Positions 7,301 through 63,218 of a DNA stretch of 64,000 bases are shown here, piece by piece (positions within the stretch are counted from its first letter, which is position 1; the number at the start of each line of letters is the position of its first letter). This DNA comes from Lama guanicoe (lineage: Eukaryota). The stretch spans positions 158,676-222,675 of the forward strand of contig MU053629.1 of NCBI GenBank assembly GCA_013239625.1, read 5' to 3'. Both the position numbers and the translations under genes were made by a program. The notes below the pieces were generated by a model. It did not search any database. It was not told the DNA's origin and saw only the letters and a list, made by a program, of their open reading frames with translations.

Positions 7301-7301
7301 T

Positions 7302-7345: not shown

Positions 7346-9486
7346 TCTAGTACTGGCAGAGATGATACTGGATTAATTGCCACAGTAAAAGATGTTATAA
7401 TTTGTGTAGATACCATCGAAATTCTTTTTCAGCAAATGGTGTGTTGTTCTGCAGTGGGGTTTTCCTATATTCCCCATGGCCCTATTAGGAGATAATGAAT
7501 CACATGAAGTATTAAAACTAGAGGGTGTGTTGGCGATCTGTTTGCTACAATATCCTCATTTTGAAGTTTGTTCATCCCGCAACATGCATTGGGACCATCT
7601 TGGAACATTTATTACTTTCCAAGCATTGTTTTAGACCCTGGACAAGAAAATGAGACCTGCTCAAGGTCAACAGTGAATTACTAGTAGGAGCTCAAATCCG
7701 ATACTCTTGGCTACATCTTGTTGGGGAAGCATAGGAAGATGTGAAACCATTTTAGTATTTTAAGCTTAAATAATAATTATAATAATTTTACAAGTATCAA
7801 CTCGAAACAACTCGAAAAATAGGTACGGCTAACCCTATTTTACAGATAAGGATACTGAGGCACAGATTAAGGAGCATAGTCAAGATTTGCACCTAGGTAA
7901 TCAGTATTTCACTCATCACTCTGTAAGTATTATCACAGTGTCTGTAGCGCTCATCTCACTAGTGTTGTGAAACTGCCTCTTATATCTGAAATTGTTAACT
8001 CTGAGGTTGAGGTCGCCTCACATTCCTCACCCTCTAGTAGAAAAGCAAATAGGTTAAAACGAGTGATTGACCATCTCATGCTAATGACTTCAGGCATTGA
8101 GATGAGCTGGGTCTATGACTGAGGGAGAAGCTAAAGACCTCAGAATCATAGAAAAAGGGATACCAGCGGTACTGGCACCAGGTGAACTCATGTGCCGGGG
8201 AAGAGAGTCAGGAGCGTACCTGTAACTTTGCTCTACCTCTTCTGGCTTCTGATAGTAATAATAGGTTTACTACATTTTGAAGGATGATGTTCCTTCATCC
8301 CTCACATTCATTGCCAACCAGACATATTTCTTCCTTTCTTACGCACATAGGAGGAAAATGTGCCCTAAATGAGCGTTGAAAATATGTAAACATGCTGTGA
8401 GTTGTTAAGTATGACTTCCTTAGCGGTCTGGATTCAGAAATGGTTTCTGCTCTCACTAAACTGTTGACAGTTTTACCCATTGGTGCTCAAGAAAAATGCT
8501 GTTTAGAAAAGAGTTTCACTTTTAATCACAGATGAAGCATAAACTGAAAATGAAGATATTTACAATGACATTCACTGAACAAATGTGAAAAATAACTGTG
8601 AATTAGTTGACTGGCAAAATCAACCCCATCTCGAAGGGCAAGGTGGTTGACCAAATGAATGATGACATCACAGTAGTTCAGATCTTTAACACGCTCTTTT
8701 ATCTACTCCCAGTCACCACTTCCTTGGCCTATAAGCCAACAATTTTTTTAAATAAAGAACCTTCTTAACAATTTTAGAATTTTAGTAACTAATTTTGAGT
8801 TCACATATGTAGTACTTTAAAAGAAAATAAATAGGAAGTGAAAACAGCTTGGGTATATACAAAATTGTTGTGGGGTTTTTTTGTTGCTGTTTTTAATAAA
8901 AACAGATTTCATTGATGGCTTAAATTGTAAAATTTATTCCAGAAAATATTGCAACCGCTATCGTCACTAGATTATATACAGGTAACTGTTCGGGGGCAGA
9001 AGTGTCATTTTCTTAAGAAGGTAAATGAGGGACCTAAGTTTTCCATGAAATAATGGTGGGTATTTCCAAACAACCTCCATTAATGACAAGTTACAGTTGA
9101 TTGAATAATGTAACAGTCTAGTCAACAAGATTTTAAATGACTTTAGAATCATAAATCATAAAACCATGGAATTTCTTTTCTTCATGAAAAGAACAGTAAG
9201 AGTCATTTTGTGCAAATCCATGTATCACAGAAGAGGACTAGAGAGGTAAATCATAAATTGCCCCAAATAACCCAATTAGTAAAAGAGCTGAGGCTAGAAA
9301 CAATTCTAGTTTTTATTTTGCTCTTGGACCACTACTTCTAAGAAAGGAGAAATACTTGTGCATAAATTACTTTACGTCACTGAACTAATTTAAATTTTTT
9401 GCATTTAAGAAATCTTGTTTGCAGTACAAATTTTTGTGGTAACATCAGGATTTCTGGGAGCAACTTTAAATTTGATTTGCATTTTG

Positions 9487-20484: not shown

Positions 20485-20852
20485 TGTTAGGTAGTTTAGA
20501 TAGAAATGAGCACTGGGCAGGGAAAGGAACAATCCAGAACACAGGGAACCTGCGCTGTCAATTAACCAGAGCACAGGGAACCTGTGCTGTCAATTAACCA
20601 GAGCACAGGGAATCAATCAGTTAATCAATCAGTTAATCAACCATGAAACCAGGGTATAAAAACAGGAGGAAGGAGAGAGCGGCGCCATTCTCCCTCTCTT
20701 GGGTTGGCCCGCTCCCAGTTCTTTCACTATTTTTTTTTTAATTTCACTAATAAATTTTGCTTATCATGCTTCTTTCCTGTCTCTCGTCAAAAATCTTTTT
20801 TTTCGGGTGTCAAAGAACAGAGGTGATTGTTATTTTGTGTTTGCCGGTAACA
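20485..20852 (+). mobile_element. Solo ERV1-type LTR, 368 bp
   Basis: TGTTA...TAACA termini, exact 4-bp TSD CAAG (20481-20484, 20853-20856), TATAAAA near 20655, AATAAA near 20749. Confidence 0.85.
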
Positions 20853-22357: not shown

Positions 22358-22502
22358 TATTTTGGCAAGGAGTAATTAGGTTGGTTGGTTGATTGACTGA
22401 CTGACTGACTGACTGATTTTAATGGAGGTACTGTATTGGGGATTGAACCTGGGACCTCATGCATGCTAAGCACCCACTCTACTCCTGAGCTATACCCTCC
22501 CC
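22358..22502 (-). mobile_element. tRNA-derived SINE (camelid Vic-1-like)
   Basis: Reverse complement begins GGGGAGGGTATAGCTCAG...GCTTAGCATGCATGAGGTCCCAGGTTCAATCCCC (A and B boxes), followed by a simple-repeat tail. Confidence 0.85.
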
Positions 22503-22977: not shown

Positions 22978-24077
22978 CCAGATGAATCTTTCTAAGTTTG
23001 CTCGTCTTGCCGGGATGGGGACAATTTTATTAGCACACTTTAATCATGAGAACAGAGCTGCAGTGCTCCTAAAGGAAAATACGATGGTTGCATTTATGAC
23101 AAAGGACTGATTACATAAAACTCTTCTTAGTTTGTAATTTTCCCTGAGAAAGGCACATCCCATGTGCATTATCATCTGAAATATAAAAGCAGCTCACCAG
23201 GAAATCACTAGAAAAAAATGCTCAGTAAACACTTGAAAAAGTGATATATCCTTTAACTGGGCTCAAGATACAGTTGAGTCTCTTACATGGCAAGAGGTTA
23301 CACTTTCCCAGCAGGATTCAGATTCCAAAGCAGTTGTGTTTATGTAGGAGAAACTCATGTAAGCCCCAATTTTTTCAAACATCTAAGGTGCTGGGATTTT
23401 TCCCCAAATCCTCATATCTCATACAATTAGTATGAGATTGGTGGGAGACCAGCAGAATCCCTATTGGAAAACGATCTGCAGTAAAGTTAAGCAGACTAAC
23501 ATCAAGTTGCTGATCCAAAAGCAGCAGCCAGGGACATACACAGCATGCTTTTTTTTTCACCAGCTTCATTTATGAGTTTCTCAAGGGGCCCTGCCTTGAT
23601 CCCTTTTATACTTCCCTCTCAGTGCAGAGCACAGAGCCTTACACATGATTAACACGTGTCAGTTGATTTAATTCAGAGTCAGAATGATTACAATCAACAG
23701 TGACCGGGAGGTAGCCATGGCCTGAATCACGAACAGCAAAAACAGCCAGGGCCACCTCTAGGCTTGAGCTGATTGTGTGCTGGGGTCGGGGGAGAGGAAC
23801 ATTCACAATGTTGACAGCACAACAAATTGTGGATTATGACAAAACCAGCATATTATGGCGTTTTCCTAGAGAGGTATCTAGGGGGTGCCTTTTTGTAATT
23901 TACAGGAAGGCACCATCACCACCATTGTGTGGGCTAGCAGGCGCCTGGGCAGAGGAACTGATGCATGGGCACTCGACCTTAAAGAGATCTTGAACTCTCA
24001 AATCACTGGAAGTGGGAGGCACAGTCCTACTGAATAAGCAGTTGTTACATTTGTAGCGTAAAGTTTAGGAGTCAAAA

Positions 24078-25208
24078 GACATGATAAACCTCCTAGAAGA
24101 AAACATAGGCAAAACATTCTCTGACAGAAATCTTAGCAATGTTCTCCTAGGGCAGTCTACCCAGGCAATAGAAATAAAAGGAAAAATTAACAAATGGGAC
24201 CTAGGTAAACTTATAAGCTTTTGCACAGCAAAGGAAACCATAAGCAAAACAAAACAGCAACCTATGGAATGGGAGAAAATATTTGCAAATGATGTGACTG
24301 ACAAAAGTTTAATTTCCAGAATATATAAACAGCCCATATAGCTTAATAACAAAAAAACAAACAACCCAATCCAAAAATGGACAGAAGACCTAAATAAGCA
24401 ATTCTCCAATGAAGACATACAAATGGCCAATAGGTACATGAAAAAAATGCCAATATTGCTGATTATCAGAGAAATGCAAATCAAAACTACAATGAGGTAT
24501 CACCTCACACCAGTCATAATGGCCACCATTCAAAATTCCACAAACGATAAATATTGGACAGGGTGTGAAGAAAAGGGAACCCCCCCACACTGTTGGTGGG
24601 AATGCAGTTTGGTGCAGCCATTATGGAAATCTGTATGGAGATTCCTCAAAAGACTAAAAGTAGATTTACCATATGATCCAGCAATCCCACTCCTAGGCAT
24701 ATATCCAGAGAGAACGCTGACTCAAAAAGATGTTCAATATTCAGAGCAGCACTATTTGCAATAGCCAAGACATGGAAGCAACCTAAATGTCCATCAACAG
24801 ACAACTGGATAAAGATGTAGTATATATATACAATGGAATACTACTCAGCCATGAAAAGAATAAAATAATACCATTTGCAGCAACATGAATGGACCTAGAG
24901 ATCATCATTCTAAGTGAAGTAACCCAGAAAGAGAAAGAAAAATACCATATGATATCATTCATATGTGGAATCTAAAACAAGAGAAAAAGAGGACACTATG
25001 AACTCATCTGCAAAACAGAAACAGACTTGCAGACAATATTATGGTTACTGGGGGAAAGAGGATGGGAAGGGACAAATTTGGAAGTTTGAGATTTGCAAAT
25101 GTTAACCACTATATATAAAAACAGATTAAAAAATACATTTCTTCTGTATAGCACAGGGAACTATATTCAATATCTTGTAATAACTTTTAATGAAAAAGAA
25201 TCTGAAAA

Positions 25209-25239
<31 letters not shown>

Positions 25240-25310
25240 TGACTGGGACATTGTGCTGTACACCAGAAATTGACACATTGTAACTGACTGTACTTCAATT
25301 TAAAAAAAGG
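24078..25310 (+). mobile_element. 5'-truncated L1 (degenerate ORF2 C-terminus, 3' UTR, A tail)
   Basis: ORF fragments LLEENIGKT...[19 protein letters not shown] and [15 protein letters not shown]...CWWEC.LVQPLW...[12 protein letters not shown] are L1 ORF2. TSD agtttagg(ag/ca)tcaaaa at 24062-24077 and 25311-25326. Confidence 0.93.
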
Positions 25311-29774: not shown

Positions 29775-30205
29775 CTTGCAGCAACATGGAAGGACTTCTA
29801 TAGAGATCATTATACTAAGTGAAGGAAGTCAGACAGAGCAAGACGAACACCATATGATATCACTTATACGTGGAATCTTAAAGTATGACACAAGTGATCT
29901 TATTTACAAAACAGAAACAGACTCACAGACATAGAAAACAAAACTTATGGTTACTTAAGGGGAAAGTGGGGGAGGGATAAATTAGGAGTTTGGGATTTGC
30001 AGATAGTGACTCATATATAAAATATATATATACCACAAGGTCCTATTGTATAGCACAGGGAATTATATTCAATATCTTGTAATAACCTATAATGGAAAAA
30101 AAGTTGAAAAAGAATATACATGTATATGTACAACTGAGTCACTATGCTGTACACCAGAAACTAACACAACATTGTCAATCAACTATTCTTCAATTAAAGA
30201 AAAAA
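29775..30205 (+). mobile_element. L1 3' UTR fragment
   Basis: ttgcagcaacatgg...acaaaacagaaacagactcacagacatagaaaac...tatagcacagggaa...cttcaattaaagaaaaa; related to the 24-25 kb L1. Confidence 0.88.
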
Positions 30206-33366: not shown

Positions 33367-34049
33367 GATAACAATCTCTATTTACTGCTAAGAAACACAT
33401 TCCTGGAAATGTCGATAAGAGCTGTTTGTCAGCTCTGTGACCCTGATGAGTCAGCTGGACACTTAACCATTGGGTGCTCAGTCTCTCCAGGTGTGAGGTG
33501 AGGGGCAGGATTTGAGCAATCATCTCTGAGGTCCTTACCAGCTCTGGCATGCTACAGTCCTTCCAGGTGGGGGTCATTTTCCTCCCCTCCCTTCCCAAGC
33601 GGAGGTAGGCCGTCCCAAGACAGCTGTGGCACCCAGAGGATCAGGGTAGGAAACACAATCAAGGCATAAAACCCGTCTATACTGGTAAGTGGGATTGACG
33701 CGCAAAATAATTTTTTCCAAAAAATAATCTGTCACCTAGTATTAGAACTTATTTTTAAATAATGTCAGGAATATATTACATTTCCCAATAAGTTTTTTTC
33801 CTACACATCTGTGATAGTTTGGGTCCCCTGAGAAGCAGATGTCAAGAGGGGCTTAGACAGACAAGAGATTCATTGAGGGAAACTCCAGCGAGAGGAAAGG
33901 AGTCGCAGGAGTCAGAGGAGGTGGAGGGAGCCTTCAGCCCACAGAGCAGGACTGCCCCCTGTGAAAGGAGAGGGGGGACATGGGAAGGCTGGGGAGGAAG
34001 AGTCTCAGACGGCAGCACAGTTCTAAGAATGTTCCAGATAGACTGAAAT

Positions 34050-34407
34050 TAATTCACAAGGCTGCCTTAACAGGGCACCGTGGACGGGTGGCTAAACCGA
34101 CAGAAATTTTCCCACAGTTCCGGAGGCTGGAAGTCTGAGTTCAAGGTGTTGGCAGGACCGGTGTTATCCGAGGCCTTTCTCCTTGGCTTGTCCATGGCTG
34201 TCTTCTCCTGTGTCTGCACCTCATCTCCCCTCTCTAGAGCTCTGTGTCCTCATCTCTTCTTCTGACAAGAGGGCCCACCCCAAGGACCTCATTTTAACTC
34301 AACTCCCTCTTCAAGGGCCCTATCTCTGAATACAGTCACATTCCGAGCCCCTGGGGGCTGGGATTTAGACGTATGAATTTGGGGGAAGGCAATTTAGTCC
34401 GTAACAG
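34050..34407 (-). mobile_element. MLT1-like LTR nested in an older ERVL-type LTR (copy 1; duplicated at about 39196-39553)
   Basis: gctgccttaaca...cacagttccggaggctggaagtctgagttcaaggtgttggcagg...cgtaaca. Confidence 0.7.
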
Positions 34408-37149
34408 GCAGGTAGGGTGTCCTCAAGCCAAAGCTGCCCATCAGAGGAGCTGTGTCTCACATCAGTGGGCCACCATGAGTATCCCCACCATGTTCTGCCA
34501 CTACAGGAGCGTGGCCCTGTGCAAGCACAGTGGTGGAGTCAAAGAACGGCCACAGCTGGGGCCTTCAGTTAATTCTCCTCCTGCCAGCAGGAGCTCTGTG
34601 GGGCATTTCCTTGGTCACTGCAACATTCGCACTTCATTGACTAACGTACTCAAGAAAAATTAATTGACCACTTATTAGGTACTAGGTGAGTGAGTCTCGA
34701 CCCTGGTTATTTGACAACAAAATTAACAGTGGAGATTTTGTTTTCTAGTGCACTTTTCTGGGCCCCATCTCGGCAGGGGGTAACTGTGCCTGAGAACTCG
34801 TGTGCCAGGTGTTGGGGGGGGTAGGACGCTGAATGGGACAGCCTCTGCCCACCAGGAGCGTCCGGCCAGGAGATGGAAGCAACGTCTTCAGAAGCCTCAT
34901 GCACAGAATAACAGCCTCATTATGGGGCCCTGGTTAAATCAGTAACTAGAACCAGCTGGAGGCAAAAAAAGGCTTGTGACTGTTATCAATCAGTAACAAA
35001 TAAAGAGTCCCAGGGGGATAGGTTCTGAGACTCACACTCATCTTGCTTTCTCCCTCAGTCCTTCCTTGCCAGGAGCTTAATCTATACATCTTCAAGCTGA
35101 AACCGGGAGAAGCGACTCAGCTCAGCCTCTGAGCTTGGCGCAGCCTTGAATGCAGTGTGGCACACCAGAGTTGTGCTAAATAAAACACAGGCACAGCCCT
35201 GACTTTAACACAAGACCAGTGAGGCGTGGCAACTTTCCAGGTCAGTACACATCTATGAGGTATTAAACACATGCACAGAGGAGCTGTTCCCACAAGACGC
35301 TTTCCAAGGCCATAGAAAGTGTTCACCTGGAAATATAAATTCATGTGTTCATACCTCCTATGGTTAAAATTAGGATAAATCTATTTGAATATTATTCTGT
35401 CTTTTATTACTATTTAATGACACTTTAATTTTTTAATGAAATTGACTCAAGAGCTTGCAGATCCCCCGAAGCATCTCTGCAGGACCCCCGATCCCTGCCC
35501 GAGCTGAGCCTAATATGGCTGGAGGTACAAGGCCCAGGGAAGCGTGGTGTCTTGCCCGGGCTTGCACAGCCCACTAGTGGCCCAACCACAATGACAGCCT
35601 TCAGCTTCAGCCTCCTCGGTCAGTGCTCTTGAATTCTGGGAAGCTCCCCGTGCCCCACAGTGAGGGCAGCGGCAGACATCAGCATGTAGCCAAGTGGGAA
35701 GTCCTTTCCCACATGGGAGACAAAAGTCCCAAAATGACCGGTGGCCTTTATGACTCAGCCTATGTTGTGGAGCATGGGAAAAAGAAGGGTTTGTTTGATT
35801 TGGTTCAGTTTTTGAGAAAGAGAAAAGCCAAGCTACATCACACCAAAGTCTGCAGGTGCTGGATCTGCACTGGGGCAGTCCTTCGGTAAACGTGGGGAAG
35901 GGACAGCGGCCGCTAGGGACTGGGGCAGAAGGTGGTGGGTTGGGGGCCGGGTGTGAGTCTGGATCAACAGAAGGGCATGCCCAGGAGGCCCGCAGCAGCA
36001 GTCTCTCCATCTGCCAGATAGTTGCAACAGCTATTCTAAGCACTGGCCCGAGGCCAGCTTTGATTGATTTTGGCAATAAAATTACATGTTCCAAAGCTCA
36101 TCTGTTTTGGACCATAAATGACACAGAGAGCTATTACAGAATGTCAGATCTGTCCCACTGTTTGGGACAGTGTCCTCTCTATTAATACCTGTTTGGCCTC
36201 AATAATGATTCATGTAAGGCAGCAGAATAATTGAGTCACTGTCAGAATCATTTTTACTCACACCTCTCTCATCGTTATTGTACGTTCTCTTCTAGAGCCA
36301 AGCATTATTCATAGGTCCCTTTGACCGTGTTAACATTAAAGTCACCGACGGGCTCTTTTTTCACTCTGCTGAGCTGAGATGGTAAACATGAGAATAAAAC
36401 ATAATGGTTTCCTACGGTGGTTAGGAAGCCCTGCCGTTAGAGGCTAACCCCCCATTTTCTAATCATGGAACAAAGGAACAGTGATCAAACTTGGAATCAA
36501 CAAATAAATTCCACCTCCATCCACACCTCAACTATTTCAGATGCCTCTCTGGTGCTGCCTCAGTGAAGCCAATTTCCCCTTCGGACCCACAAGCATCTTC
36601 TCGCTGCCCCAAACCAGGAGGCAACTGTGCACCTTCCTCTTTGCTCAGACTCCCCCTCCTTCAGGCCAGTGCTGTCAGTCCATCCCTGTGTCGCATATGG
36701 GTCTTGGCCAGGGAACAAAGAACAGAAACCCTCTCCAACTAGCTCAACCGAAAACAGGGACTGTGTTGGAAGGAACTGAGGTGATCTCTCAGGAAGCTGA
36801 GCTCATGGGGAGACAGGACATACCTGAGGGAGCAAGGGTTCCTTCTCTTCAACAATTTAAGGAGACACTGGTAGGAGGGTCACTGAGCTTGTGTTGGAAG
36901 CTTAGAGGAAGACGTGTGACGCAGGGGTTGCCGTGTCTAACAACTGACCTGCCGGTGGTCAAGAAGTCTGCCCTCCCGCCCTCGCTCCGCTGCCTTCCTC
37001 CGCGTGGCTGGTGCTGGCTCAGCCCGTTTGCAGTGTGGGAGAGGACCCCTGTCTACAGAACCTGGCGCTGGGGCCCCTTAGAGGCCTTCCAGCACCCGCC
37101 TTCTCAGTCCTTGAAATCACCCTGCCACATCCTCTGTCGGGGGTTCTTT

Positions 37150-38790
37150 GGCCTTGTTTATCTGATAGCTCCAGTGACAGGGAACTTAACTACCTCTTTC
37201 CTTTTTCAGACAGCTCTCACCATCGTCCCCACTCATCTCTCGTCCTGATCTTCTTACTCAGATTTATGAAAATGACTCTTCATTTTCCCATAGATCTTCT
37301 CTTTGAGAAGCTAAGCATTTCCGGGACCCTCAATAATCCCTCAAAGGGCATTCTCAGCGCCCCAGGACATCCCAGTGTCTGTTCCGGGATATCTTCCGGT
37401 GTATTGAAGTCCCTTCTAACTTGCAGCACCCAAAATTGAACCCTGTGCTCTGGATGTCGTCTGCTCTGCAAATGAAGGATGGATTATTTTTCATCCATAC
37501 TCGTATTATTTTCCAATGTCATTATTTTCTGGTTATACTTTAAATTCAGTTTTCTGGTAGCCAGAATGTACCGTTGCCTCCCACAGAGCCACTTATCAAT
37601 CAATGTGAGACTTTACATTTATTTATATCCATGACACTCCACCTTGTTGAAATTAGGCTGCTGTTCCACCTTGCTGAAATGGTTGGGTCCTAATTTTACC
37701 GTCAAACTCACTGTCATTCATCTTTATATAGACCTCAAATTTGACAAGACATACACTATACATCTGAGTCACTGATATGAACATTGAACACGACTGTTCC
37801 AGATCAAAGCTCTTCCAGAATGTATTTAGAAACCTTCCAGTCTGTCACCCATTCTTCAATCAATAATGCTCTTTCAAACAGTCACAGATTAATCTCTCTC
37901 ATAATTCAATCAGCATTTTTTCATCTTGTCCATTGAATGCCTCTTACAATCCAGACACACCATACCTGCTGCACATCCCCAGTCTGACTGGCCAACAGTC
38001 CTACTGAAAGCAGGAGATAAAGATCACTGGGCATGATTCACAGTGAGCTGCTATTACTTACTGGACTAAGAATTCACAAAATATTCATTTAATAATTACT
38101 TAGAGAGTGTCTTGACACCATCTTCTTCCTTTTTTGATAATCAGGGCAGTGTTTTCTTATCTTCAACCTTCTAATATTTCCCTATTTTCCACCATGCCTC
38201 AGAGATGACTGACAAGCATTCTAGTCCATTTACCTTCAATTTGCCTGAACCAGGCTATGAACTTATTCAAAACAGGTAGGTGCTTTTCCCCCCATTCCTT
38301 CCCCTATCTTGTGCTTCCATTTCCTGGTCCCCGTGTTTTCCATTGTGCAGATCATTAACCTTGACAGAATGGCAACGTTAAAAACACTTGTATTTTCTCT
38401 TTGTCACCTGTAAACATTACAGCATCTCCCCCAGCAAGAGACTCATGCCTTTTTTAGTTCTTCCTGCTCTGAACTAAAGAAAAAGTCATTATCCTGGTTC
38501 TTCAAGCCTAAGTTAATCCTGTGCTTCAGTCATCCTGCCCCTGTCTTAACAAATTTATTCACGCATTCACCCAGTGGACAAACTTTTACTAGGAAATCTG
38601 CATCTTGTCTCCAAGTAAGATAAAGTAATTACACAGTAATTACATCTTCGTGATGCTTTCTCCTTTGGCCAGATTTTGGTATTTGCATTATTTGCTTCTA
38701 CACATCTTCTCAGCAATCAGAGAATCATATGTCACTTCTTTGGATGTAATTAGGGGGAAAAAAGGTTGCTGGAGGAAAAAAGAATGATAG
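37150..38790 (-). mobile_element. Ancient CR1/L3 fragment (copy 1; duplicated at about 42298-43938)
   Basis: ctccagtgacagggaacttaactacctc and caaatttgacaag...gtcactgatatgaacattgaaca resemble antisense CR1/L3 RT-region text. Confidence 0.55.
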
Positions 38791-41700
38791 TCCATATGGC
38801 AGGGCAAGAGCATAAAACCCGTCTATACTGGTAAGTGGGATTGACGCGCAAAATAATTTTTTCCAAAAAATAATCTGTCACCTAGTATTAGAACTTATTT
38901 TTAAATAATGTCAGGAATATATTACATTTCCCAATAAGTTTTTTTCCTACACATCTGTGATAGTTTGGGTCCCCTGAGAAGCAGATGTCAAGAGGGGCTT
39001 AGACAGACAAGAGATTCATTGAGGGAAACTCCAGCGAGAGGAAAGGAGTCGCAGGAGTCAGAGGAGGTGGAGGGAGCCTTCAGCCCACAGAGCAGGACTG
39101 CCCCCTGTGAAAGGAGAGGGGGGACATGGGAAGGCTGGGGAGGAAGAGTCTCAGACGGCAGCACAGTTCTAAGAATGTTCCAGATAGACTGAAATTAATT
39201 CACAAGGCTGCCTTAACAGGGCACCGTGGACGGGTGGCTAAACCGACAGAAATTTTCCCACAGTTCCGGAGGCTGGAAGTCTGAGTTCAAGGTGTTGGCA
39301 GGACCGGTGTTATCCGAGGCCTTTCTCCTTGGCTTGTCCATGGCTGTCTTCTCCTGTGTCTGCACCTCATCTCCCCTCTCTAGAGCTCTGTGTCCTCATC
39401 TCTTCTTCTGACAAGAGGGCCCACCCCAAGGACCTCATTTTAACTCAACTCCCTCTTCAAGGGCCCTATCTCTGAATACAGTCACATTCTGAGCCCCTGG
39501 GGGCTGGGATTTAGACGTATGAATTTGGGGGAAGGCAATTTAGTCCGTAACAGGCAGGTAGGGTGTCCTCAAGCCAAAGCTGCCCATCAGAGGAGCTGTG
39601 TCTCACATCAGTGGGCCACCATGAGTATCCCCACCATGTTCTGCCACTACAGGAGCGTGGCCCTGTGCAAGCACAGTGGTGGAGTCAAAGAACGGCCACA
39701 GCTGGGGCCTTCAGTTAATTCTCCTCCTGCCAGCAGGAGCTCTGTGGGGCATTTCCTTGGTCACTGCAACATTCGCACTTCATTGACTAACGTACTCAAG
39801 AAAAATTAATTGACCACTTATTAGGTACTAGGTGAGTGAGTCTCGACCCTGGTTATTTGACAACAAAATTAACAGTGGAGATTTTGTTTTCTAGTGCACT
39901 TTTCTGGGCCCCATCTCGGCAGGGGGTAACTGTGCCTGAGAACTCGTGTGCCAGGTGTTGGGGGGGGTAGGACGCTGAATGGGACAGCCTCTGCCCACCA
40001 GGAGCGTCCGGCCAGGAGATGGAAGCAACGTCTTCAGAAGCCTCATGCACAGAATAACAGCCTCATTATGGGGCCCTGGTTAAATCAGTAACTAGAACCA
40101 GCTGGAGGCAAAAAAAGGCTTGTGACTGTTATCAATCAGTAACAAATAAAGAGTCCCAGGGGGATAGGTTCTGAGACTCACACTCATCTTGCTTTCTCCC
40201 TCAGTCCTTCCTTGCCAGGAGCTTAATCTATACATCTTCAAGCTGAAACCGGGAGAAGCGACTCAGCTCAGCCTCTGAGCTTGGCGCAGCCTTGAATGCA
40301 GTGTGGCACACCAGAGTTGTGCTAAATAAAACACAGGCACAGCCCTGACTTTAACACAAGACCAGTGAGGCGTGGCAACTTTCCAGGTCAGTACACATCT
40401 ATGAGGTATTAAACACATGCACAGAGGAGCTGTTCCCACAAGACGCTTTCCAAGGCCATAGAAAGTGTTCACCTGGAAATATAAATTCATGTGTTCATAC
40501 CTCCTATGGTTAAAATTAGGATAAATCTATTTGAATATTATTCTGTCTTTTATTACTATTTAATGACACTTTAATTTTTTAATGAAATTGACTCAAGAGC
40601 TTGCAGATCCCCCGAAGCATCTCTGCAGGACCCCCGATCCCTGCCCGAGCTGAGCCTAATATGGCTGGAGGTACAAGGCCCAGGGAAGCGTGGTGTCTTG
40701 CCCGGGCTCGCACAGCCCACTAGTGGCCCAACCACAATGAGACAGCCTTCAGCTTCAGCCTCCTCGGTCAGTGCTCTTGAATTCTGGGAAGCTCCCCGTG
40801 CCCCACAGTGAGGGCAGCGGCAGACATCAGCATGTAGCCAAGCGGGAAGTCCTTTCCCACATGGGAGACAAAAGTCCCAAAATGACCGGTGGCCTTTATG
40901 ACTCAGCCTATGTTGTGGAGCATGGGAAAAAGAAGGGTTTGTTTGATTTGGTTCAGTTTTTGAGAAAGAGAAAAGCCAAGCTACATCACACCAAAGTCTG
41001 CAGGTGCTGGATCTGCACTGGGGCAGTCCTTCGGTAAACGTGGGGAAGGGACAGCGGCCGCTAGGGACTGGGGCAGAAGGTGGTGGGTTGGGGGCCGGGT
41101 GTGAGTCTGGATCAACAGAAGGGCATGCCCAGGAGGCCCGCAGCAGCAGTCTCTCCATCTGCCAGATAGTTGCAACAGCTATTCTAAGCACTGGCCCGAG
41201 GCCAGCTTTGATTGATTTTGGCAATAAAATTACATGTTCCAAAGCTCATCTGTTTTGGACCATAAATGACACAGAGAGCTATTACAGAATGTCAGATCTG
41301 TCCCACTGTTTGGGACAGTGTCCTCTCTATTAATACCTGTTTGGCCTCAATAATGATTCATGTAAGGCAGCAGAATAATTGAGTCACTGTCAGAATCATT
41401 TTTACTCACACCTCTCTCATCGTTATTGTACGTTCTCTTCTAGAGCCAAGCATTATTCATAGGTCCCTTTGACCGTGTTAACATTAAAGTCACCGACGGG
41501 CTCTTTTTTCACTCTGCTGAGCTGAGATGGTAAACATGAGAATAAAACATAATGGTTTCCTACGGTGGTTAGGAAGCCCTGCCGTTAGAGGCTAACCCCC
41601 CATTTTCTAATCATGGAACAAAGGAACAGTGATCAAACTTGGAATCAACAAATAAATTCCACCTCCATCCACACCTCAACTATTTCAGATGCCTCTCTGG

Positions 41701-44700
41701 TGCTGCCTCAGTGAAGCCAATTTCCCCTTCGGACCCACAAGCATCTTCTCGCTGCCCCAAACCAGGAGGCAACTGTGCACCTTCCTCTTTGCTCAGACTC
41801 CCCCTCCTTCAGGCCAGTGCTGTCAGTCCATCCCTGTGTCGCATGTGGGTCTTGGCCAGGGAACAAAGAACAGAAACCCTCTCCAACTAGCTCAACCGAA
41901 AACAGGGACTGTGTTGGAAGGAACTGAGGTGATCTCTCAGGAAGCTGAGCTCATGGGGAGACAGGACATACCTGAGGGAGCAAGGGTTCCTTCTCTTCAA
42001 CAATTTAAGGAGACACTGGTAGGAGGGTCACTGAGCTTGTGTTGGAAGCTTAGAGGAAGACGTGTGACGCAGGGGTTGCCGTGTCTAACAACTGACCTGC
42101 CGGTGGTCAAGAAGTCTGCCCTCCCGCCCTCGCTCCGCTGCCTTCCTCCGCGTGGCTGGTGCTGGCTCAGCCCGTTTGCAGTGTGGGAGAGGACCCCTGT
42201 CTACAGAACCTGGCGCTGGGGCCCCTTAGAGGCCTTCCAGCACCCGCCTTCTCAGTCCTTGAAATCACCCTGCCACATCCTCTGTCGGGGGTTCTTTGGC
42301 CTTGTTTATCTGATAGCTCCAGTGACAGGGAACTTAACTACCTCTTTCCTTTTTCAGACAGCTCTCACCATCGTCCCCACTCATCTCTCGTCCTGATCTT
42401 CTTACTCAGATTTATGAAAATGACTCTTCATTTTCCCACAGATCTTCTCTTTGAGAAGCTAAGCATTTCCGGGACCCTCAATAATCCCTCAAAGGGCATT
42501 CTCAGCGCCCCAGGACATCCCAGTGTCTGTTCCGGGATATCTTCCGGTGTATTGAAGTCCCTTCTAACTTGCAGCACCCAAAATTGAACCCTGTGCTCTG
42601 GATGTCGTCTGCTCTGCAAATGAAGGATGGATTATTTTTCATCCATACTCGTATTATTTTCCAATGTCATTATTTTCTGGTTATACTTTAAATTCAGTTT
42701 TCTGGTAGCCAGAATGTACCGTTGCCTCCCACAGAGCCACTTATCAATCAATGTGAGACTTTACATTTATTTATATCCATGACACTCCACCTTGTTGAAA
42801 TTAGGCTGCTGTTCCACCTTGCTGAAATGGTTGGGTCCTAATTTTACCGTCAAACTCACTGTCATTCATCTTTATATAGACCTCAAATTTGACAAGACAT
42901 ACACTATACATCTGAGTCACTGATATGAACATTGAACACGACTGTTCCAGATCAAAGCTCTTCCAGAGTGTATTTAGAAACCTTCCAGTCTGTCACCCAT
43001 TCTTCAATCAATAATGCTCTTTCAAACAGTCACAGATTAATCTCTCTCATAATTCAATCAGCATTTTTTCATCTTGTCCATTGAATGCCTCTTACAATCC
43101 AGACACACCATACCTGCTGCGCATCCCCAGTCTGACTGGCCAACAGTCCTACTGAAAGCAGGAGATAAAGATCACTGGGCATGATTCACAGTGAGCTGCT
43201 ATTACTTACTGGACTAAGAATTCACAAAATATTCATTTAATAATTACTTAGAGAGTGTCTTGACACCATCTTCTTCCTTTTTTGATAATCAGGGCAGTGT
43301 TTTCTTATCTTCAACCTTCTAGTATTTTCCTATTTTCCACCATGCCTCAGAGACGACTGACAAGCATTCTAGTCCATTTACCTTCAATTTGCCTGAACCA
43401 GGATATGAACTTATTCAAAACAGGTAGGTGCTTTTCCCCCCGTTCCTTCCCCTATCTTGTGCTTCCATTTCCTGGTCCCCGTGTTTTCCATTGTGCAGAT
43501 CATTAACCTTGACAGAATGGCAACGTTAAAAACACTTGTATTTTCTCTTTGTCACCTGTAAACATTACAGCATCTCCCCCAGCAAGAGACTCATGCCTTT
43601 TTTAGTTCTTCCTGCTCTGAACTAAAGAAAAAGTCATTATCCTGGTTCTTCAAGCCTAAGTTAATCCTGTGCTTCAGTCATCCTGCCTCTGTCTTAACAA
43701 ATTTATTCACGCATTCACCCAGTGGACAAACTTTTACTAGGAAATCTGCATCTTGTCTCCAAGTAAGATAAAGTAATTACACAGTAATTACATCTTCGTG
43801 ATGCTTTCTCCTTTGGCCAGATTTTGGTATTTGCATTATTTGCTTCTACACATCTTCTCAGCAATCAGAGAATCATATGTCACTTCTTTGGATGTAATTA
43901 GGGGGAAAAAAGGTTGCTGGAGGAAAAAAGAATGATAGTCCATATGGCAGGGCAAGAGTCAAGGTATTTACTACACATTCTGTGGGGAGAGAGAGAGTGA
44001 CAAGGAAATAAACCCTTGCATTATAACCACATCCCCCATTTGTGAGAAGAAGAGAGTTAAGCCATGCATTTAAGTGGGTTTCTTCTGGCACAAGGTGGGA
44101 ACTGATGCCAAGAATCACCAGCTTCAAGTCATAAAATCATACAAGGGAAACAGAATACCTCTAGGGATGCATATAAAGTAAATGCACATACAGACGTCTC
44201 ACTGAAACTGCAATGGAGGCAGATTCTGAAACATTCCTAAGGAACTGTACTTGATATGTGCAAAAATACTACTGGTGCTTTAGTAATGGTGTAGTGCTTG
44301 GTATTTTATTTCAGCTAGTTAGGCGTAAAAATTAAAATAAGGGTGTTTGGTAGATCTGTGACCTCAGTGTCTCCAATTCTACGTTTCAATTAAGGCCTTA
44401 AGTTATTTAAGTGTAAAATTCTCCCATCCCATCCCAGGGGTTTCAGGCACCTAGTGCTTGAGCTTAAGCGGTCGCTGATGTGTCGAAGCCACGTGTACAT
44501 GGTAGGAGGAACCGATGAAAGCCCAGAGAGTGAAGAAGCTTCTTGGGACAGCAGGGTGTCCCGACTTTCAGGGTGAGTAGGAGAGAAAGGACCACCTGCG
44601 CAGAGGCCCCAGCCGGTGCTGAGGCAGGCAGGGTAACCCAACCCGCACAGGGAAACACCCAGGGCTGACCAAGGGAAGGAGCAGCAGGAGGGAAGGCCAG

Positions 44701-45414
44701 GCAGCAGAGCCAGGCCCATCCCTGAAGGGCCTCAAACGTCCCAGCAGGGAGCCTAGAATTTCTCCTGCGAGGAGGGGAGAACTAACGTGGTTTGTGAGCC
44801 TTCGGGGTGGTATGTTGCAAGCCTACTTGTGACTTCAAAGGACAAGGCAGGAGACCGTTTGCATCATGAGCTCCCTGGGGACCAGGGGAGGCGTCATCTT
44901 CTGCTTTGCTTCTGTTACTTTTTTTGTGTATTCTCTTTAAGACAACATTGACAGTTGTTGGGCTAGGCCATAAAATGGGAGTTTATTCTGCTTTGTCTCT
45001 GAAAAGACATGAATCACTCTTTCTGGCTGCAGGTCCTCTATCTGTTAAATCAGGTCACAGTACTTCCCCCGCTGCCTCATAGCCAGGAAGAGCTACCATA
45101 TTTTTGACATCTCACTGTGTGCAGGCAGTGTGCACATGCAGTATCTCATTTAACCCTCATAACAACCTACTAGAGTGAACTGTTAAATGTCCCCACTATA
45201 TGGATGAAGGGATTGAGGTTTGGGGAGGGCATGTGACATCCCTTAGGTCTTACAGGTGTAAGTGGCATAGCCAGGAGATTCCTTAGATGAATTTCCCAGT
45301 GATTTGAAGGGTGATCACTGTGAGGCTCCCCCCGACCCGCCCCCGGATTCTAGGTATTACTGTACTGCGGATGGAGGAAGCATTAGGAAGCTTTCGTCCT
45401 CCCAACGAAACTTT

Positions 45415-45898
45415 TGAGACAGAAGGGAAGGGGGCAGGGCACGACCATTGAAAGAATGACACAGCAACTGAGGACAGGACATAAACCGGTTAGAACCAAC
45501 TCAGCCCAAGACGGCAGAAGACTAGACTTCCTGTAGACCTTGGCCTCTTTACAGGCTCATTGTAACATATTAGCATGCACAATGACACACCCACAGGTGC
45601 ACGACAGTTTCCAAGGTGACCGTAAAAGGCCCAAAAGTGGGCAACGGCCCAATTCCTGGAAATGCCCACCCTTTTCCCCAAATAGTTGGAATAAACCTCC
45701 CACTTGTCAGCATATGAAATTAACCAGCCCGTAAAAACTAACCACTCTCACTCCTCGGGGCCACCTCTCTTGCCTTCTGAGTGGGTCCGCACTCTGCCTA
45801 TGGGGTATGTGTCTCCCTGAATAAACTTGCCTTCACATTGCTCTGGCTCGCTCTTGAATTCTTTCCCGCAAGAGACAAGAACCGACCCTACGGCAACA
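45415..45898 (+). mobile_element. Solo ERV1-type LTR
   Basis: TG...CA termini (tgagacag...ggcaaca), AATAAA near 45820, U5-like cttgaattctttc...gacaagaac, flanks cttt/gttt (4-bp TSD with 1 mismatch). Confidence 0.72.
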
Positions 45899-48800
45899 GT
45901 TTCACCGTCGGCACCACGTACCTCCCTTCTCTCTCCTGTCAACCCGCTGCCGTCATTTTGTGCTTAGAATATGGGGTTAGTGATTTTAATGCAGCCCCTC
46001 CCAGGCCTCCCCAGAATTCAACAGTCTGGGAAGCATAATTCAGCTCCCACCTTCAGCAACACGGCGACGCCACTTGCCTTTTTTCCACTTACTCATCACA
46101 GCAGTGATTCAGAGCCGCGCTGTTCTGACGGCAATTCATGCCTGTGCTGCTGTGTGCAGGTGTTGGCTGTGACTTCCCGTTAGGGCACTGATGTTATTTT
46201 TACCTGAGCCGGGATTAAATGACTTAGCTTATAGCAAAAGTGGAACCAAAAGTCCTCGGGAACCCCGGGGAAGAATTGGTCAGATGGTTTTGAATGTGTG
46301 ATGTTTTTTCCTTTGATAGAAAAGAAGATAACATACTAATGTAATTAAGAGGCTGCTGTGGTGTGATGGGAAGAGTAGAAGAAGTGAAGTCAGAAGACCA
46401 ACTCTCCTCCCCTCTTTCTGCTGGATTTGGAGTTGTTTTTGTTCATTAAGAGGTAAGTCACACATCATAATAAAATTCACCCTTTAAAAGGGTATAATTC
46501 AATAGTTTTCAGTATATCCACAAAGTCATGCTACCATCACCCCTCTCTGATTCCAGAACATTTTCTCATCCCCCAAAGTAACTGCACACCCAAGTGCAGT
46601 CACTCCCTATGTCCTTTACTTGTGCTGATGCCACCTCAGCTTGCTCGCTCCCCTCCCGTCCCCCAACCCCGAATCCCCCAGCCATCACCCGTCTGGTCAC
46701 CAGAGATGAAGTCCCTCTGGCTGAGCACAGGGACAGGGCCATTGCTGTTTGATAAGCATAAAGGTGGCTCTGCTGTCCGGCACAATGTCATCCCTGATGG
46801 CAGAGAACCACCACCACCAGGCTACAACTGATATCCGGGCAAACAGATAAATAAGCCCTGAGAGAGAGCGGGGCCCTGACTGCCGGCATGGGTCTCTGCC
46901 ACACAACCACACTCAAGAAACGGACTCTCCAGCCTCCGTAAGGCAGCCTCAGGGATTAGGAAGACAGCGGTGCATCCCACCTAGGGCAGAAACGTCACCC
47001 TTGGAACTCGTCCACAGTTTCTGCCTCCTGCATTGCTCCTGCGGAGGGGAATGCTCATTCCCTAGCCCAGGTTTTCATGGACGGGAGGGAATTGATGCTC
47101 TAAGCCAGAGGAGGCGCAGTGTGCAAGAGAAACAGCTTGCCGGCCCCTCCCCCACTCCTCCCCAAGGAGGGAGAGACTCAGCACCAGCTTTAAAAAAAAA
47201 GTATATAGAATGTATGATACAATATGATTCAATATGATGTGATATGATACGGTATAATATACAGTGTATTATATGATATATACAATGTATATTTACATCT
47301 TTGTTTTTGTCCATCCACCAGAACATAGTGTTCAAGAGAGCAGAGAGTTGGCCCCACCTCCAACGCCTAGAATTGTGCTTGAAACAGAGTAGATGCTGTA
47401 TGAATACGTGTTGAGTAAACAGAGGAGAGAAGTTAGGACAATAGAAAAGTGGCCGGAGGCCAAAGGCCAAAACTGAACCCAGAAGAGTTTGTCACTAGTA
47501 GGAGAAGCCCTAACTATTGAGATTCGCATTTCTCTAAAAGTTGTATTTTTATCATGTTTTAAGATGTTCTACTTCAGGACACTTAGCACAACAGGACCAT
47601 TGTTTGGCGAGCCCAGCCCTGCCAGCCAGAGTTGGCTGCTTCAGCCTCCCGGCTGCTCTTCCGTCCTCAGGACTCAGCTTCCAGGCCTGCGCATCCATGC
47701 TCAGCTGGACAAAAGAACCCCCGGTGACCCCTCCTCCCTGGCGGCTGAGTCAGGGTGCAGGCTCAGAACAGGCAGCTTGGTGTGTCTTTCCGGGCATGAC
47801 CGGTTCTCTCCAGCAGGGATGGGCTGGCCAGTCGTTCCCCCAGGGCAGCCCTGTATATGGGGCACTGAAGCCCCACCAGAAACGCAGTGATGCTGAGAAC
47901 ATCACAGCTCCTGCAACACCGTACTGTACATAGTTATAAACTGCGACCTTTTAGAACCCCAAGATGTGTCCTCTGGTAGCAACAGTAAAAACCCTGGCTG
48001 CCTCCAGAGTTCTGCTTTGCTGAGAGGGGTCTACAAACAGCTCTGGTTTGGATCCAGACAGGAGAGGCTTTTGGTGGTGAGAGCCCTGCCTCCTTGCTCT
48101 TCCCCCAGACAGGCAGGCGCTCCTCCAAACAAGCTTTGAAGGGGCTCTAAACTGCGATCCTGCCCACGGTGCCCATGCACTTGACCCACTCCTGCCCCCT
48201 CCCTTGTACTGTACCCCACGTTGCACCATTCCTCCTAATCCATCTTAACTTCCAGTCTTGCCCCCGACCCCATGGTGGTCTCAAACACTCAGAGCAACCA
48301 CAGGGTGAAAATGACATTTGTTTTGGCCAAATGTCCTCTGAAAGAGTCCAATCTACATCTGACACTCTCCAAGGGCATCCCAGGCTTAGCTTCAAATTTC
48401 ACTTCAATGCTTCCCAGTGGAGTGATTACACAATTCACACTGAGTCTTTTACCTGAAGGAACCTTTGTCTCTTGGTATCTGCAGGAACCTAAATCTAAAT
48501 GTAAAAGGAGAAAGTAAAGGCCATGTGCAAGCTGGCTCAGCATCCCTCAATGGTGTTCATTCAGCCCAGTATTAAGGTCAATGATATTTTGTCATGGTCT
48601 ACATTGGGGCAGAGCCTTTCATTAGACAGGAAGCTCCGGGCAAGCTTGATTTTCTTGACCTCTCTAATTGAATACATTTCTCCTTATCCCTGGCAAAGAG
48701 AGTGGAAAAACACTTTTAGAACTCAGTCCACCAATTGTAGCCTTAACAGGTTGGGTGACCTACTCGGCCCTAGGTTTCATTGTCCACCCGTTGCCCAAGG

Positions 48801-54747: not shown

Positions 54748-55066
54748 TTTTTTTTAATTGAAATATAGTCAGTTTACAATGTTGTGTCAATTTCTAGCGT
54801 ATGGCAGAATGTTTCAGGAATGTATGTACATACACATATATTCCTTTTCAGACTTTTTTTCATTATAGGTTACTGCAAGATATTGAATATAGTTCCCTGC
54901 GCTATACAATAGAAACTTGTTTATCTATTTGCAGTATCTGCAAATCTTGAACTCCCGTTTTATCCCTTCACACCCCCTTGCCTCTTGAAAATACCATATG
55001 ATATCACTAATATGTGGAATCTGAAAAAAAAAGACACAAATGAACTTATTTATAAAACAGAAACAG
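54748..55066 (-). mobile_element. L1 3' end with 5' inversion
   Basis: Antisense L1 3' terminus 54748 to about 54986 joined to a sense upstream segment about 54987-55066. Confidence 0.8.
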
Positions 55067-57634
55067 ACCATCAGTTTTTATGAATGAACTTGACTGCAGT
55101 TTATCACACTGAACGGTAATTACCTGTTTATAAGACTAGTCCCCTCACCAGGCGGGGAGCTACTCAGGTCCCCACAGTGCCCAGCACACCACTGATCCTT
55201 AAAACACATTTTTAAAAAAAAAAAAAAAGGTAATGAGAATGAGAGGCATGAGGACAGATAAACTGCCACTTCAGTCACTTCACTTTCCTTGGGCTATTAT
55301 GCTAATGTTAATTCTGCTCAGTCAGTCGTGTGCTCAGGACCACTCAGGTCAGGCCCAGCAGGATGGGGGTGCATGGAGCAGGTGGGCAAAACACAGTGAG
55401 ATGCACCAGGTACACTGGGGGGCTGCATGCTAAGTGGGGGTGCAAAGCCAGTACTGAGACAGAAAGGTCAACAGGAGATGTCTCGGAGGGAGCAGGGGAG
55501 AGGCCCCAGCCGGAAAATGGCAGAGCTGATGGGCAATGTTAGAGGGCAGTGGTATGACAGCTCCTGGTCTAGAAAAGAACACGCTAGGCGGTCTTCCCGG
55601 AGTCACTAAGGTCCAGTGGGTGCCCCTCCATCAGAGAGGGTTCTCTTTGGTCCCCCTTTACTGCACATCATCCTGAAGTCGCCCTGTTCCCTCCAGCCCA
55701 GAGCTCGGTGAGCAAATGTGTGGTGAAGCTATGAGGTCACCTAAGGGACACAGAGGCATTGATGATGACACCTCCCACTGCCCGGCACCAGGAGAGATGA
55801 ACGTCTGAACACAGTTAGACTGAGGACAGAAACTCAGACACTTTCACTCCATGATGGCCAAGAAACCAAAGTGCGGGGGGAGATGGACTGGCTTCACATT
55901 ACCCGGCTTTGAATCCCTGTCTTGCACCTGACTCGTGGGCTGAGGTGGGACAATGGAATGATGTCAGGCTCAGTTCGGGCTGAGACAAGACAATTTGTCC
56001 AAGACAACAGGTGCCCATCACTCCCATGCAGGCTGCATAGTCTACCTGTGAGAAAAGCAGATTCAGAGACAAAAGCACTTAGGAATGAAAAGAAGTTTAC
56101 TTTAAAAAGAATTCAAGGAAGTCGGACTTCAGGAGGGCAGGCTGGCAAAAATTAAAAATGAGATCAAATCCATTTAGATATTTAAAGAGAAAAAAACCCC
56201 TAAGTATGAGCAAAGTTACTGACTTTACATTAGCTGTCGTGGTAGAAAAACAGTGACTTTCCCACGTAATTATCTTACCCTCAAAAGTCACAGCTGATGG
56301 TCAGATGCTGGCATTGCAAGAGGCAGGGTAAAGTTTCTGTTAGAATCAGGTAAGAATCAAATGACAGCCCTACCCCTGCTGGGAGCGGAAGGGATTACAG
56401 AGGCTGGAGACCCATGTTTACTGGACGAAGTCAAGGCTTCGTTTATTTAGGGGACCAGAACCAGACATGGGGATCTATTTGTTCTGTCTCCCAGTGCAAC
56501 CTGATTTTTTTTCCTCCCCGGATGTGAAAAATGATGTACACATTACTCAAAATGGTAGCAGGGCAAAGGGTCAATTTTGCTTTCCAAGGAGGTGGCTGAA
56601 ACCCTGTTACCACTTACAAACCCCAAAAGTTAATGTCGGAGAGCAGGAGGGAACTTGGAGGTTGGAGCCTCTCTTTAGAGACCTTTCCAGCCTGCAGTGA
56701 GTCCCAGCCCTCATGCCAAAGAGGAAGGGGTGGTGATGGTGGCAGTGCTTGGGCATGAAAGGCTTGCTCAGAGCGCTTCATTTCTCAGGGAGACAGACAG
56801 CTAAAGAGAAGAGGAGGAGGAAACAGCCTGGGGCAGCAGAGGGGGCTGCTATAATGGGATCAGTTCACTCCTGGAGGGCCAAGGATGTACTGGGTCTGCC
56901 CAGGATCAGATGCGGGTCCTGGCAGAGAGACCTTGCCTGGAGACCTTAAGGATTCCACCCCAGGGGGTCACCTTATAAGAATGATGGCCAAAGTTGCCCT
57001 AAGTGACAGAGGGGCAGAGGGAGGAGTTGCTAAGTGGCCAGCCAGAAGAGGCATGTCCACCACCACCAAGGGAAGGTCAGGGAAAGGCTCTGCAGCCTGG
57101 AAGCACAGCTCTAAGAAATCCACCGGAGGGAAAAACATCCTTAAACACTTGCCAGCTTAGAGGAAACTCAGACCAGACAAGTGCCAGTCAAATAAGACCC
57201 TTCCTGCCCTACGCCTTTCCTTCCTCTCCTCATTGCTTCTCTGTGGTCATCGGAACTTAGAGCAAGTCTCGTGCAGGGAGGAGAAGCTAGGGTGTCAGGA
57301 GAGCCAGAGGGTCCACAGCAGGCTCCACCATCCCTCACCCCCGGAGGTCCAGGCTCGGGGGAGGGGGAAGATTTACATTTGAAGTTCATCGTTTGCTGGC
57401 GTTTTAAAAATTAAACTACGTGGCACTGGATATTTCATTATTATCTGAGACCATTTAAAGGACTAAGGGGACTGGGGACTTTCACGCCATAGAAGTGAGG
57501 GCACCTGCATGAGGTTTTATCTCAGGCCAGGGAAAAACCAGCCTGACGGCAGGAGGGCAGCGAGGGAAGATTAAGTTGCTGTAAGGTTGGTCTTACAAGT
57601 CCTGCCCTTCCAGTGAACGGTTAGGCGGAGTGCT

Positions 57635-59199: not shown

Positions 59200-59350
59200 G
59201 GGGGGGGGTATAGATCAGTGGTAGAGTGTGTGCTTAGCATGCACGAGGTCCTGGGTTCAATCCCTAGTACTTCCACTAATAAACAAACAAACAAACCAAC
59301 CTATCACCTCTGCCCCCCCCAAAAAAAACCCAGAAAAATTTTTTTAAAAA
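59200..59350 (+). mobile_element. tRNA-derived SINE (Vic-1-like)
   Basis: ggggtatagatcagtggtagagtgtgtgcttagcatgcacgaggtcctgggttcaatccc plus A-rich tail. Confidence 0.88.
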
Positions 59351-61461: not shown

Positions 61462-62256
61462 ACCACCAAAATTCTACAAATGATAAATGCTGGGGAGGAG
61501 GTGGAGAAAAGGGAACCCTCCTACACTGCTGGTGGGAATGTAAATTGGTGCAGCCACTGTGGAAAACAGTATGGAGATTCCTTTAAAAACTAAAAATAGA
61601 ACTGCCATTATGATCCAGCAATTCCACTCCTGGGTATATATCCGGAAAATATGAAAACTTTAAATCAAAAAGATACATGTGCCTTTAATGTTTATAGCAG
61701 TGCTATTTATAATAGACAAGACATGGAAACAACCCCAGTGCCAATCAACAGATGATTGGCTTAAGATGTTACACACACACACACACAAAATGGAGTATTA
61801 CTCAGCCATAAAAATAATGAAACGTTGTCATTTGCAGCAACATGGAGGGACCTAGAGATTATCATACTAAGTAAGTCAGACAGAGAAAGACAAACATGGT
61901 ATCACTTACATGAAAAATCTAAAAAATAATACAAATCAAATCAGCCTATATACTAAACAGAAACAGACTCACAGACACAGAAAACAAACTTACAGTTACC
62001 AAAGGGGAAAGAGTCAGGAGAGAGGGATAAGTGAGAAGTATGGAATTATCAGATACAAACTACTGTACATAAAACCAACAAATAATAAGGACTTACTACT
62101 ATAGAGCACAGAGAACTATGTTCAATATCTTATAATAAACTATAATGGAAAATAATCTGAAAAAATATGTGTACCTATATATACATAATGGAATCACATC
62201 TCTGTACACCTGAAACTAACACAATATTGCAAATCAACTGGACTTCAATTAAAACA
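61462..62256 (+). mobile_element. 5'-truncated L1 3' end
   Basis: ORF2 end (KCW...[26 protein letters not shown]) plus 3' UTR; candidate TSD agtaaagc at 61452-61459 and 62265-62272. Confidence 0.9.
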
Positions 62257-63070
62257 AGAGAGAGAGTAAAGCTGGATGCTGGCTTGTGTAACCCAACCCT
62301 AGGTTTTCACCTCAACCACCTGTTTCTCTAGAAATTGCCAACTCAGAGCAAAGTTCAAATAGGTTATAATTCCCACAAGCAGCTGCATTTCCAATAAATA
62401 ATTAGTTATCAAATTAACTGTGATCCTGACACCTGCCAGGCCAAACCAATTCACAAGGCTTTTAGAGAGAGCATATTTCAAGATTTTGTTTTGTTACTCA
62501 TGTTATTTTCAAAATTACATGATATTAAACACTCAGCTTTAGTTATCACAAAAGCTTTTGGTCTGGTGGAACTCCTACACAATGTGTGTACATGAGTGTT
62601 GGGTTTAAGGTACCCTCAGTAATTGCATATTTAAACGTGGTGAATTCAGAGTTTGAACTCAGTCACTTTTCTCTACCTTTCACCCCTCTTCCCAACAGGG
62701 AAGTAACTACACCCAGAGCTGTTGTCAGGCCTGGCTGGCTCTCTGAGCTGTGGCTTAGCGGTCCTCAGCTGGTCCTCAGGTTGATGAGCTGGCCTTTCCA
62801 TAGATGGTCAGTCCTCACCATGGCCTCTGGTCACTGGGTCCAATCAGCCTGCTTCTTCTTGGTTCCAAAACAAGGCCTTTCTGGGTGGACCAGCTGGCCT
62901 GCAGTCACTTCTGAGCTCCTGTTTGGGAGCCGTGGGGGATTCCATATGCCCTCTTGTGAGCTTTCCCCAAGTCCACCGGTGGGCACTCCTCCCTCAGCCA
63001 CTGCTGTCCTGCCACGCAGGCCCCAAGACCAGGCATGCATCTATTTACATATAAAGTGATTACCTTTAAA

Positions 63071-63218
63071 GGGGGGAGGACATAGCTCAGTGGTAGAGGG
63101 CACGCTTAGCATGCTCGAGGTCCTGGGTTCAATCTCCACTAAGTCCATTAAAAAAAGTAGTAATAAATAAATAAACCAAATTACCTCCCCTACAAGGAAG
63201 GAAAAAAAAAAAGAAAGA
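63071..63218 (+). mobile_element. tRNA-derived SINE (Vic-1-like)
   Basis: ggggggaggacatagctcagtggtagagggcacgcttagcatgctcgaggtcctgggttcaatc...aaataaataaaccaaattacctcccc plus A tail. Confidence 0.88.

Follow-up and report, generated by a model that had tools for sequence, protein, structure and literature searches.

Tandem duplications that are simple and non-recurrent and carry microhomology at the junction arise by MMBIR/FoSTeS and by alt-EJ. Some non-coding tandem duplications reportedly act by enhancer dosage; this is said of the 4.6-kb grey duplication at STX17 in the horse and of a human 5.5-kb duplication downstream of BMP2. A similar picture may be produced by genome assembly: false heterotype duplications are reported to be mostly separated by gaps and sometimes to be joined without a gap by unsupported gap filling (Ko et al., 2022, PMC9516828).

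For the locus considered here, the closest described regulatory element is the human islet stretch enhancer at rs7163757, the most thoroughly studied type 2 diabetes enhancer of C2CD4A/B, which is reported to lie in the interval separating the two genes (Kycia et al., 2018, as cited by others). The human element was cloned as a 1303-bp fragment and showed islet and brain reporter expression (PMC7829492). Two cloning primers for it have been published together with its allele-sensitive behavior in reporters (PMC5005967), the latter being described also in PMC10760134, and the SNP overlaps an NFAT footprint (PMC3431491). The human papers conflict as to which way the allele acts and which gene it targets: the risk allele lowers reporter activity in PMC5005967, whereas a rise in activity, with C2CD4A/B or VPS13C as the target, is given in PMC10760134, PMC12779665, PMC6961712, and bioRxiv 400291. 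Here, we describe a 5.15-kb unit that is present in two adjacent copies downstream of C2CD4A in a camelid window, i.e., the whole stretch of 64,000 nucleotides that was analyzed.

Organization of the Repeated Unit and Its Breakpoints

Self-BLAST of the window revealed a single long internal repeat, which aligned over 5154 bases at 99.69% identity with 13 mismatches; the next-best self match was a dispersed repeat of 818 bases with 71% identity. According to the pairwise alignment, copy 1 occupies positions 33665–38810 (5146 bp; 33664–38809 is equally possible owing to a 1-bp microhomology) and copy 2 occupies positions 38811–43958 (5148 bp), both in direct head-to-tail orientation. The copies are distinguished by 13 substitutions and a 2-bp indel, namely GA at 40739–40740, which is found in copy 2 and is absent from copy 1 (0.253%, 95% CI 0.13–0.43%). 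A repeat of 5 kb with such identity cannot occur by chance. The sequence-only reading had reported two head-to-tail copies with a gapless junction, and its coordinates proved exact; its estimate of about 13 substitutions and a GA indel near 40740 was likewise confirmed (0.25%). Within the unit, stretches identical between the copies reach up to 1.2 kb. Inspection by eye showed the unit to be a non-coding patchwork of ordinary intergenic DNA, and, of the 39 stop-to-stop frames of the window that reach 120 aa or more, those that fall within the unit also look non-coding.

The junction between the copies (38810..38811) contains no gap and no inserted bases and has 1 bp of exact microhomology (G). 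No N was found between the copies, the sole N run of the window being one of 29 bases at 6645–6673. The hexamer TCAAGG abuts the unit start on its outer side (33659..33664, plus strand) and occurs again immediately past copy 2 (43959..43964, plus strand); it is thus present at both outer breakpoints and missing where the two copies meet. A 6-mer match that strictly abuts the breakpoints is found in 0.1% of random breakpoint pairs, for a pattern that was defined post hoc, and any common 6-mer no more than 8–10 bases from the breakpoints is found in 3–6% of random pairs. The nearest differences between the copies lie 680 bp inside the unit start and 270 bp before the unit end. A simple heterozygous bubble would be expected to end near variant sites, unlike the ends of this unit.

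Host and Genomic Context

The C2CD4A coding sequence was located at 6197–7275 on the plus strand, where it is broken by the 29-N gap; the gap lies inside a GC-rich coding region (GC 0.60 in 6001–8000). The unit starts approximately 26.4 kb downstream of the C2CD4A stop codon. The N-terminal 149 residues of the product showed 99% identity to the alpaca protein, which was the best of 571 matches. In a comparison with the three camelid members of the protein cluster, C2CD4A differed from the alpaca protein by one residue before the gap and one after it (two in total) and from the Camelus proteins at 9–13 and 10 aligned positions, indels included. Because C2CD4A is only two residues away from alpaca and is separated from Camelus by indels, the host is a South American camelid, which narrows the earlier assignment to a probable camelid. 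The lineage-marking indels comprise a 4-residue insertion (GDEH, positions ~6790–6805) common to the window and alpaca in comparison with Camelus C2CD4A, and a 5-residue stretch near the N-terminus that Camelus has and both the window and alpaca lack.

The two sides of the gap align to residues 6–171 and 191–368 of alpaca C2CD4A in different frames. The frame break is therefore an effect of the gap and not a loss of the gene. A Pfam search with the two C2CD4A pieces returned no families. The C-terminal half of the protein (6691–7218) has 84–89% identity to camelid C2CD4B-cluster proteins, whereas the N-terminal half has 58–64%, and this contrast suggests that gene conversion between C2CD4A and C2CD4B may have occurred at the 3′ ends. 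In the window, C2CD4B proteins match the C2CD4A locus alone; hence, the C2CD4B gene lies outside it. It had been proposed that the unit is located in the C2CD4A/C2CD4B interval. Its position downstream of C2CD4A was borne out, whereas the placement between the two genes relies on synteny (adjacent accessions on contigs of equal length), for which we presume the gene order of human.

The DNA around the second copy was also compared with public data. Sampled words of positions 38700–48600 were present at a share of 0.81–0.93 in 20 of 24 public runs, covering five organism labels and eight studies; the runs consist of contigs, and the comparison is blind to the junction (~3 of 1023 words) and to copy number. 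The best runs, with 0.88–0.93 of the words, correspond to a divergence of at most 0.23–0.41%. Thus, the DNA itself is genuine camelid sequence.

Several repeats were found elsewhere in the window. A SINE with a tRNA-derived head and low-complexity tails occurs three times, at 22417–22502, 59200–59283, and 63073–63153; we take this to be the camelid SINE, and its presence fits a South American camelid origin. The Rfam search of 40000–64000 gave one match, a tRNA-like SINE head at 59204–59275, outside the unit. LINE-1-like 3′ fragments that are 71–85% similar to each other occur at 24065–25308, 29776–30203, 54748–55068, and 61467–62257, and the frame 24342–24764 resembles by eye the tail of LINE-1 ORF2. 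In addition, a stretch of ~450 bases at ~45430–45890, 1.5 kb past copy 2, resembles a solo LTR by eye (GC-rich, with a poly(A) signal), and positions 20534–20612 contain 2.5 copies of a 32-bp unit with 95% identity.

Divergence Between the Copies

Transitions account for 12 of the 13 substitutions (p = 2e-5 against 1/3), and six of the 13 fall at CpG sites (p = 2e-6), which make up 3.3% of the unit. Owing to this spectrum, the differences are attributed to mutation, and sequencing error was ruled out as their origin. They are germline mutations, which holds for paralogues and alleles alike. Asymmetric decay of one copy was also considered and rejected (CpG losses 5:1, p = 0.22).

The differences are distributed unevenly. 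Eight of the 14 are grouped within 721 bases at 37820..38540 (42968–43688 in copy 2; scan p = 0.008, KS p = 0.026), so that the divergence is 0.80% in the distal kilobase and 0.14% in the proximal 4.15 kb. Alleles that had recombined in admixed animals would be expected to show such distal clustering, and so would true tandem copies that were partly homogenized by conversion or unequal exchange. Error-prone synthesis was discarded as the source of the cluster, since three of its eight sites are CpG transitions, which point to age.

Mutation rates were taken as 2.2–5e-9 per year. At these rates, the copies would have diverged 0.25–0.58 Myr ago, with an outer range of 0.14–0.98 Myr. If two alleles were joined, the duplication itself is younger than the divergence of the copies.

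The heterozygote rate reported for alpaca is 0.266%, and those of two camels are 0.074% and 0.116% (PMC6389616, Table 4). The divergence between the copies (0.253%) thus matches the rate of alpaca, which serves here as a stand-in for the South American camelid of the window. Under a non-recombining coalescent at the alpaca rate, two alleles would show at least 13 differences with a probability of 0.40. The earlier remark that the low divergence equally fits two mis-assembled haplotypes is therefore upheld by these values.

Possible Origins of the Tandem Copies

Taken together, the data slightly favor a real duplication over an assembly artefact, with the two close to balance. A real duplication is supported by the clean gapless junction, the short homology at the breakpoints, the distance of the unit ends from the differences, and the mutational spectrum. 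The allelic level of divergence, the clustering of the differences, the post hoc nature of the breakpoint-motif statistic, and the gapless false joins reported from erroneous gap filling (PMC9516828) count against it.

The short imperfect homology at both ends points to template switching, as generally understood for MMBIR/FoSTeS and alt-EJ. A replication fork or a break end at 43958 would have jumped to a template position 5.15 kb back and annealed there through a short imperfect homology (CAAG(A)G versus CAAG-G) next to the TCAAGG of both outer breakpoints; the class of mechanism would be MMBIR/FoSTeS or polymerase-theta end joining. Two courses of events may then be envisaged. In the first, the copies would have drifted apart for ~0.25–0.6 Myr, with the proximal 4 kb partly homogenized. 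In the second, the template would have been the homologous chromosome; the copies would then be two alleles, and the event could be very recent.

Copy-number variants are reported to be common in these species, with 4247 calls in 24 animals, including 1265 duplications (bioRxiv 2025.08.28.672513). We give an even chance to the full reading that this is a real, ordinary, young non-coding tandem duplication, probably segregating in South American camelids and having no large physiological effect. In the titles and abstracts of a limited literature collection, no report of a duplication at C2CD4A was found, C2CD4C is mentioned in the PMC7331169 supplements, whose text names neither the other C2CD4 genes nor VPS13C, and PMC6598621 contributes no information on the locus. 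A scan of metagenome contigs for the final 24 bases of the unit gave no matches, where camelid host DNA is not expected.

The strongest alternative, to which we assign somewhat less than an even chance, is that the assembly placed both alleles of a single-copy 5.15-kb stretch one behind the other. The gapless junction means that such an artefact would need a chimeric molecule or a wrong merge to close the gap. One concrete route may be suggested: a read over the circularization join of a mate-pair fragment of ~5 kb would go from the end to the start of that fragment and would mimic a tandem junction with a period equal to the insert size. Libraries of 5 kb are reported for published short-read assemblies of these species (PMC7331169 supplement), and the 29-N gap in GC-rich DNA suggests that short-read data contributed to the assembly of the window; however, the match between the unit size and a library insert is a weak coincidence. 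The equality of divergence and heterozygosity supports this explanation, and the distal clustering would suit alleles of mixed ancestry, admixture being reported at 36% for alpaca and 5% for llama (PMC7331169). In contrast, the junction is free of gaps and stray sequence, the unit ends away from variant sites, and there is no reason for a common 6-bp motif to stand at both ends of a random library fragment. If the unit is an artefact, it represents a gapless false duplication that would escape gap-based filters and would conceal 14 variants from SNP calling.

Two further origins were rejected: non-allelic recombination between breakpoint repeats, since neither end has a self match except the unit itself, and insertion of a mobile element flanked by a 6-bp target-site duplication, since no terminal repeats were seen in what appears by eye to be a patchwork of intergenic DNA.

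Putative Enhancer Content and the Camelid Glucose Phenotype

A search of the window with the human cloning primers of the rs7163757 element gave no matches at up to three mismatches. The best match of the reverse primer in the whole window lies at 36140–36164 (18 of 25 bases, syntenic strand), and 26% of shuffles were as good. Each of five human primers, three of them for the neighboring SNP, remained at chance level (26–95% of shuffles as good), and the chain of all five scored 107 against a null mean of 105.8. When both cloning primers and their known spacing were considered, the best pair found beyond the gene on its downstream side lies within the unit, is syntenic in orientation, and delimits a tentative orthologue of the human amplicon at 34866..36164 on the plus strand (40012–41312 in copy 2), with a span of 1299 bp versus 1303 bp in human. 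The significance of this mapping depends on the spacing allowed, for which seven tolerances were tested (p from 0.05 to 0.87): in 150 trials, shuffled pairs scored as well in 5% at ±5 bp, 10% at ±10 bp, 18% at ±25 bp, 34% at ±50 bp, and 87% at ±400 bp.

A search with the NFAT consensus found three NFAT-like hexamers in the mapped span, at 35234, 35301, and 35328 (35234–35333), with no differences between the copies. Ten islet-type motifs were counted in the unit; RFX half-sites (5) and AP-1 sites (4) reached ~2.5–3 times the background, which is unconvincing across ten tests. By eye, an AT-rich block beside the reverse-primer match (36040–36400; ~41190–41550 in copy 2) contains TGATTGAT and CCATAAAT together with an AP-1 site and a TGTCCC-N-GGGACA palindrome, and it resembles a conserved non-coding element. 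Overall, the presence of an rs7163757 enhancer orthologue in the unit is possible, with a likelihood that we place just under one half.

A real, segregating duplication might double the putative camelid orthologue of the rs7163757 islet/muscle enhancer, raise the expression of C2CD4A, C2CD4B, or VPS13C, and make insulin secretion or sensitivity differ among individuals or among species. We regard this as very improbable. The tightly spaced primer pair, the islet and brain activity and allele sensitivity of the human element (PMC7829492, PMC5005967, PMC10760134), and the hexamers that recall the NFAT footprint at the human SNP (PMC3431491) speak for it. However, the primer mapping loses its significance with relaxed spacing, the single primers and the five-primer chain are at chance, the islet-type motifs show no convincing excess, and the human literature disagrees on direction and target.

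High glucose and insulin resistance are reported for camels (PMC6389616) and also for South American camelids (PMC11436879), and these lineages are reported to have been separate for more than 11 Myr (PMC13751797). Since the copies are 0.14–1.0 Myr old and the trait is common to both lineages, the duplication cannot be the cause of the camelid-wide phenotype, and a link to it is not supported: copies less than ~1 Myr apart put a family-wide trait beyond the reach of an enhancer-dosage allele. At most, the duplication could modulate how the trait varies among individuals or among species. If it is real and carries the enhancer, it would provide an easily genotyped natural copy gain of a diabetes-risk element in a large animal that is known to be insulin resistant; such a natural dosage experiment could help to settle the target gene and the direction of the effect, which are disputed in humans.

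Comparison With Known Systems

The unit shares with the human rs7163757 enhancer the locus, the side of C2CD4A, and a tentative primer match, whereas the human variant is a single base and the camelid one is a copy gain with putative orthology and activity. In comparison with the STX17 and BMP2 duplications, it is of similar size and is likewise tandem, non-coding, and near a plausible target gene; those two are said to have junction validation, phenotype segregation, and reporter data, whereas the camelid unit is a candidate from sequence. It resembles microhomology-mediated tandem duplications formed by MMBIR/FoSTeS or alt-EJ in its direct orientation, kilobase size, breakpoints in non-repeated sequence, and a junction with 1 bp of exact homology and a few bases of imperfect homology. 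It differs from them in that the 6-bp outer motif is absent from the junction, where one copy of it would be retained in such events, and in being a candidate as regards its existence in animals. In terms of sequence structure and divergence, the adjacent near-identical copies that differ at the level of heterozygosity are also like false heterotype duplications, although, unlike most of those reported, they are joined with no gap and no filler (PMC9516828). The unit is therefore either an ordinary young copy-number variant or an assembly artefact, and in neither case a new kind of system; the observed structure behaves as a simple non-coding tandem copy-number variant and, if it is real, belongs to that class.
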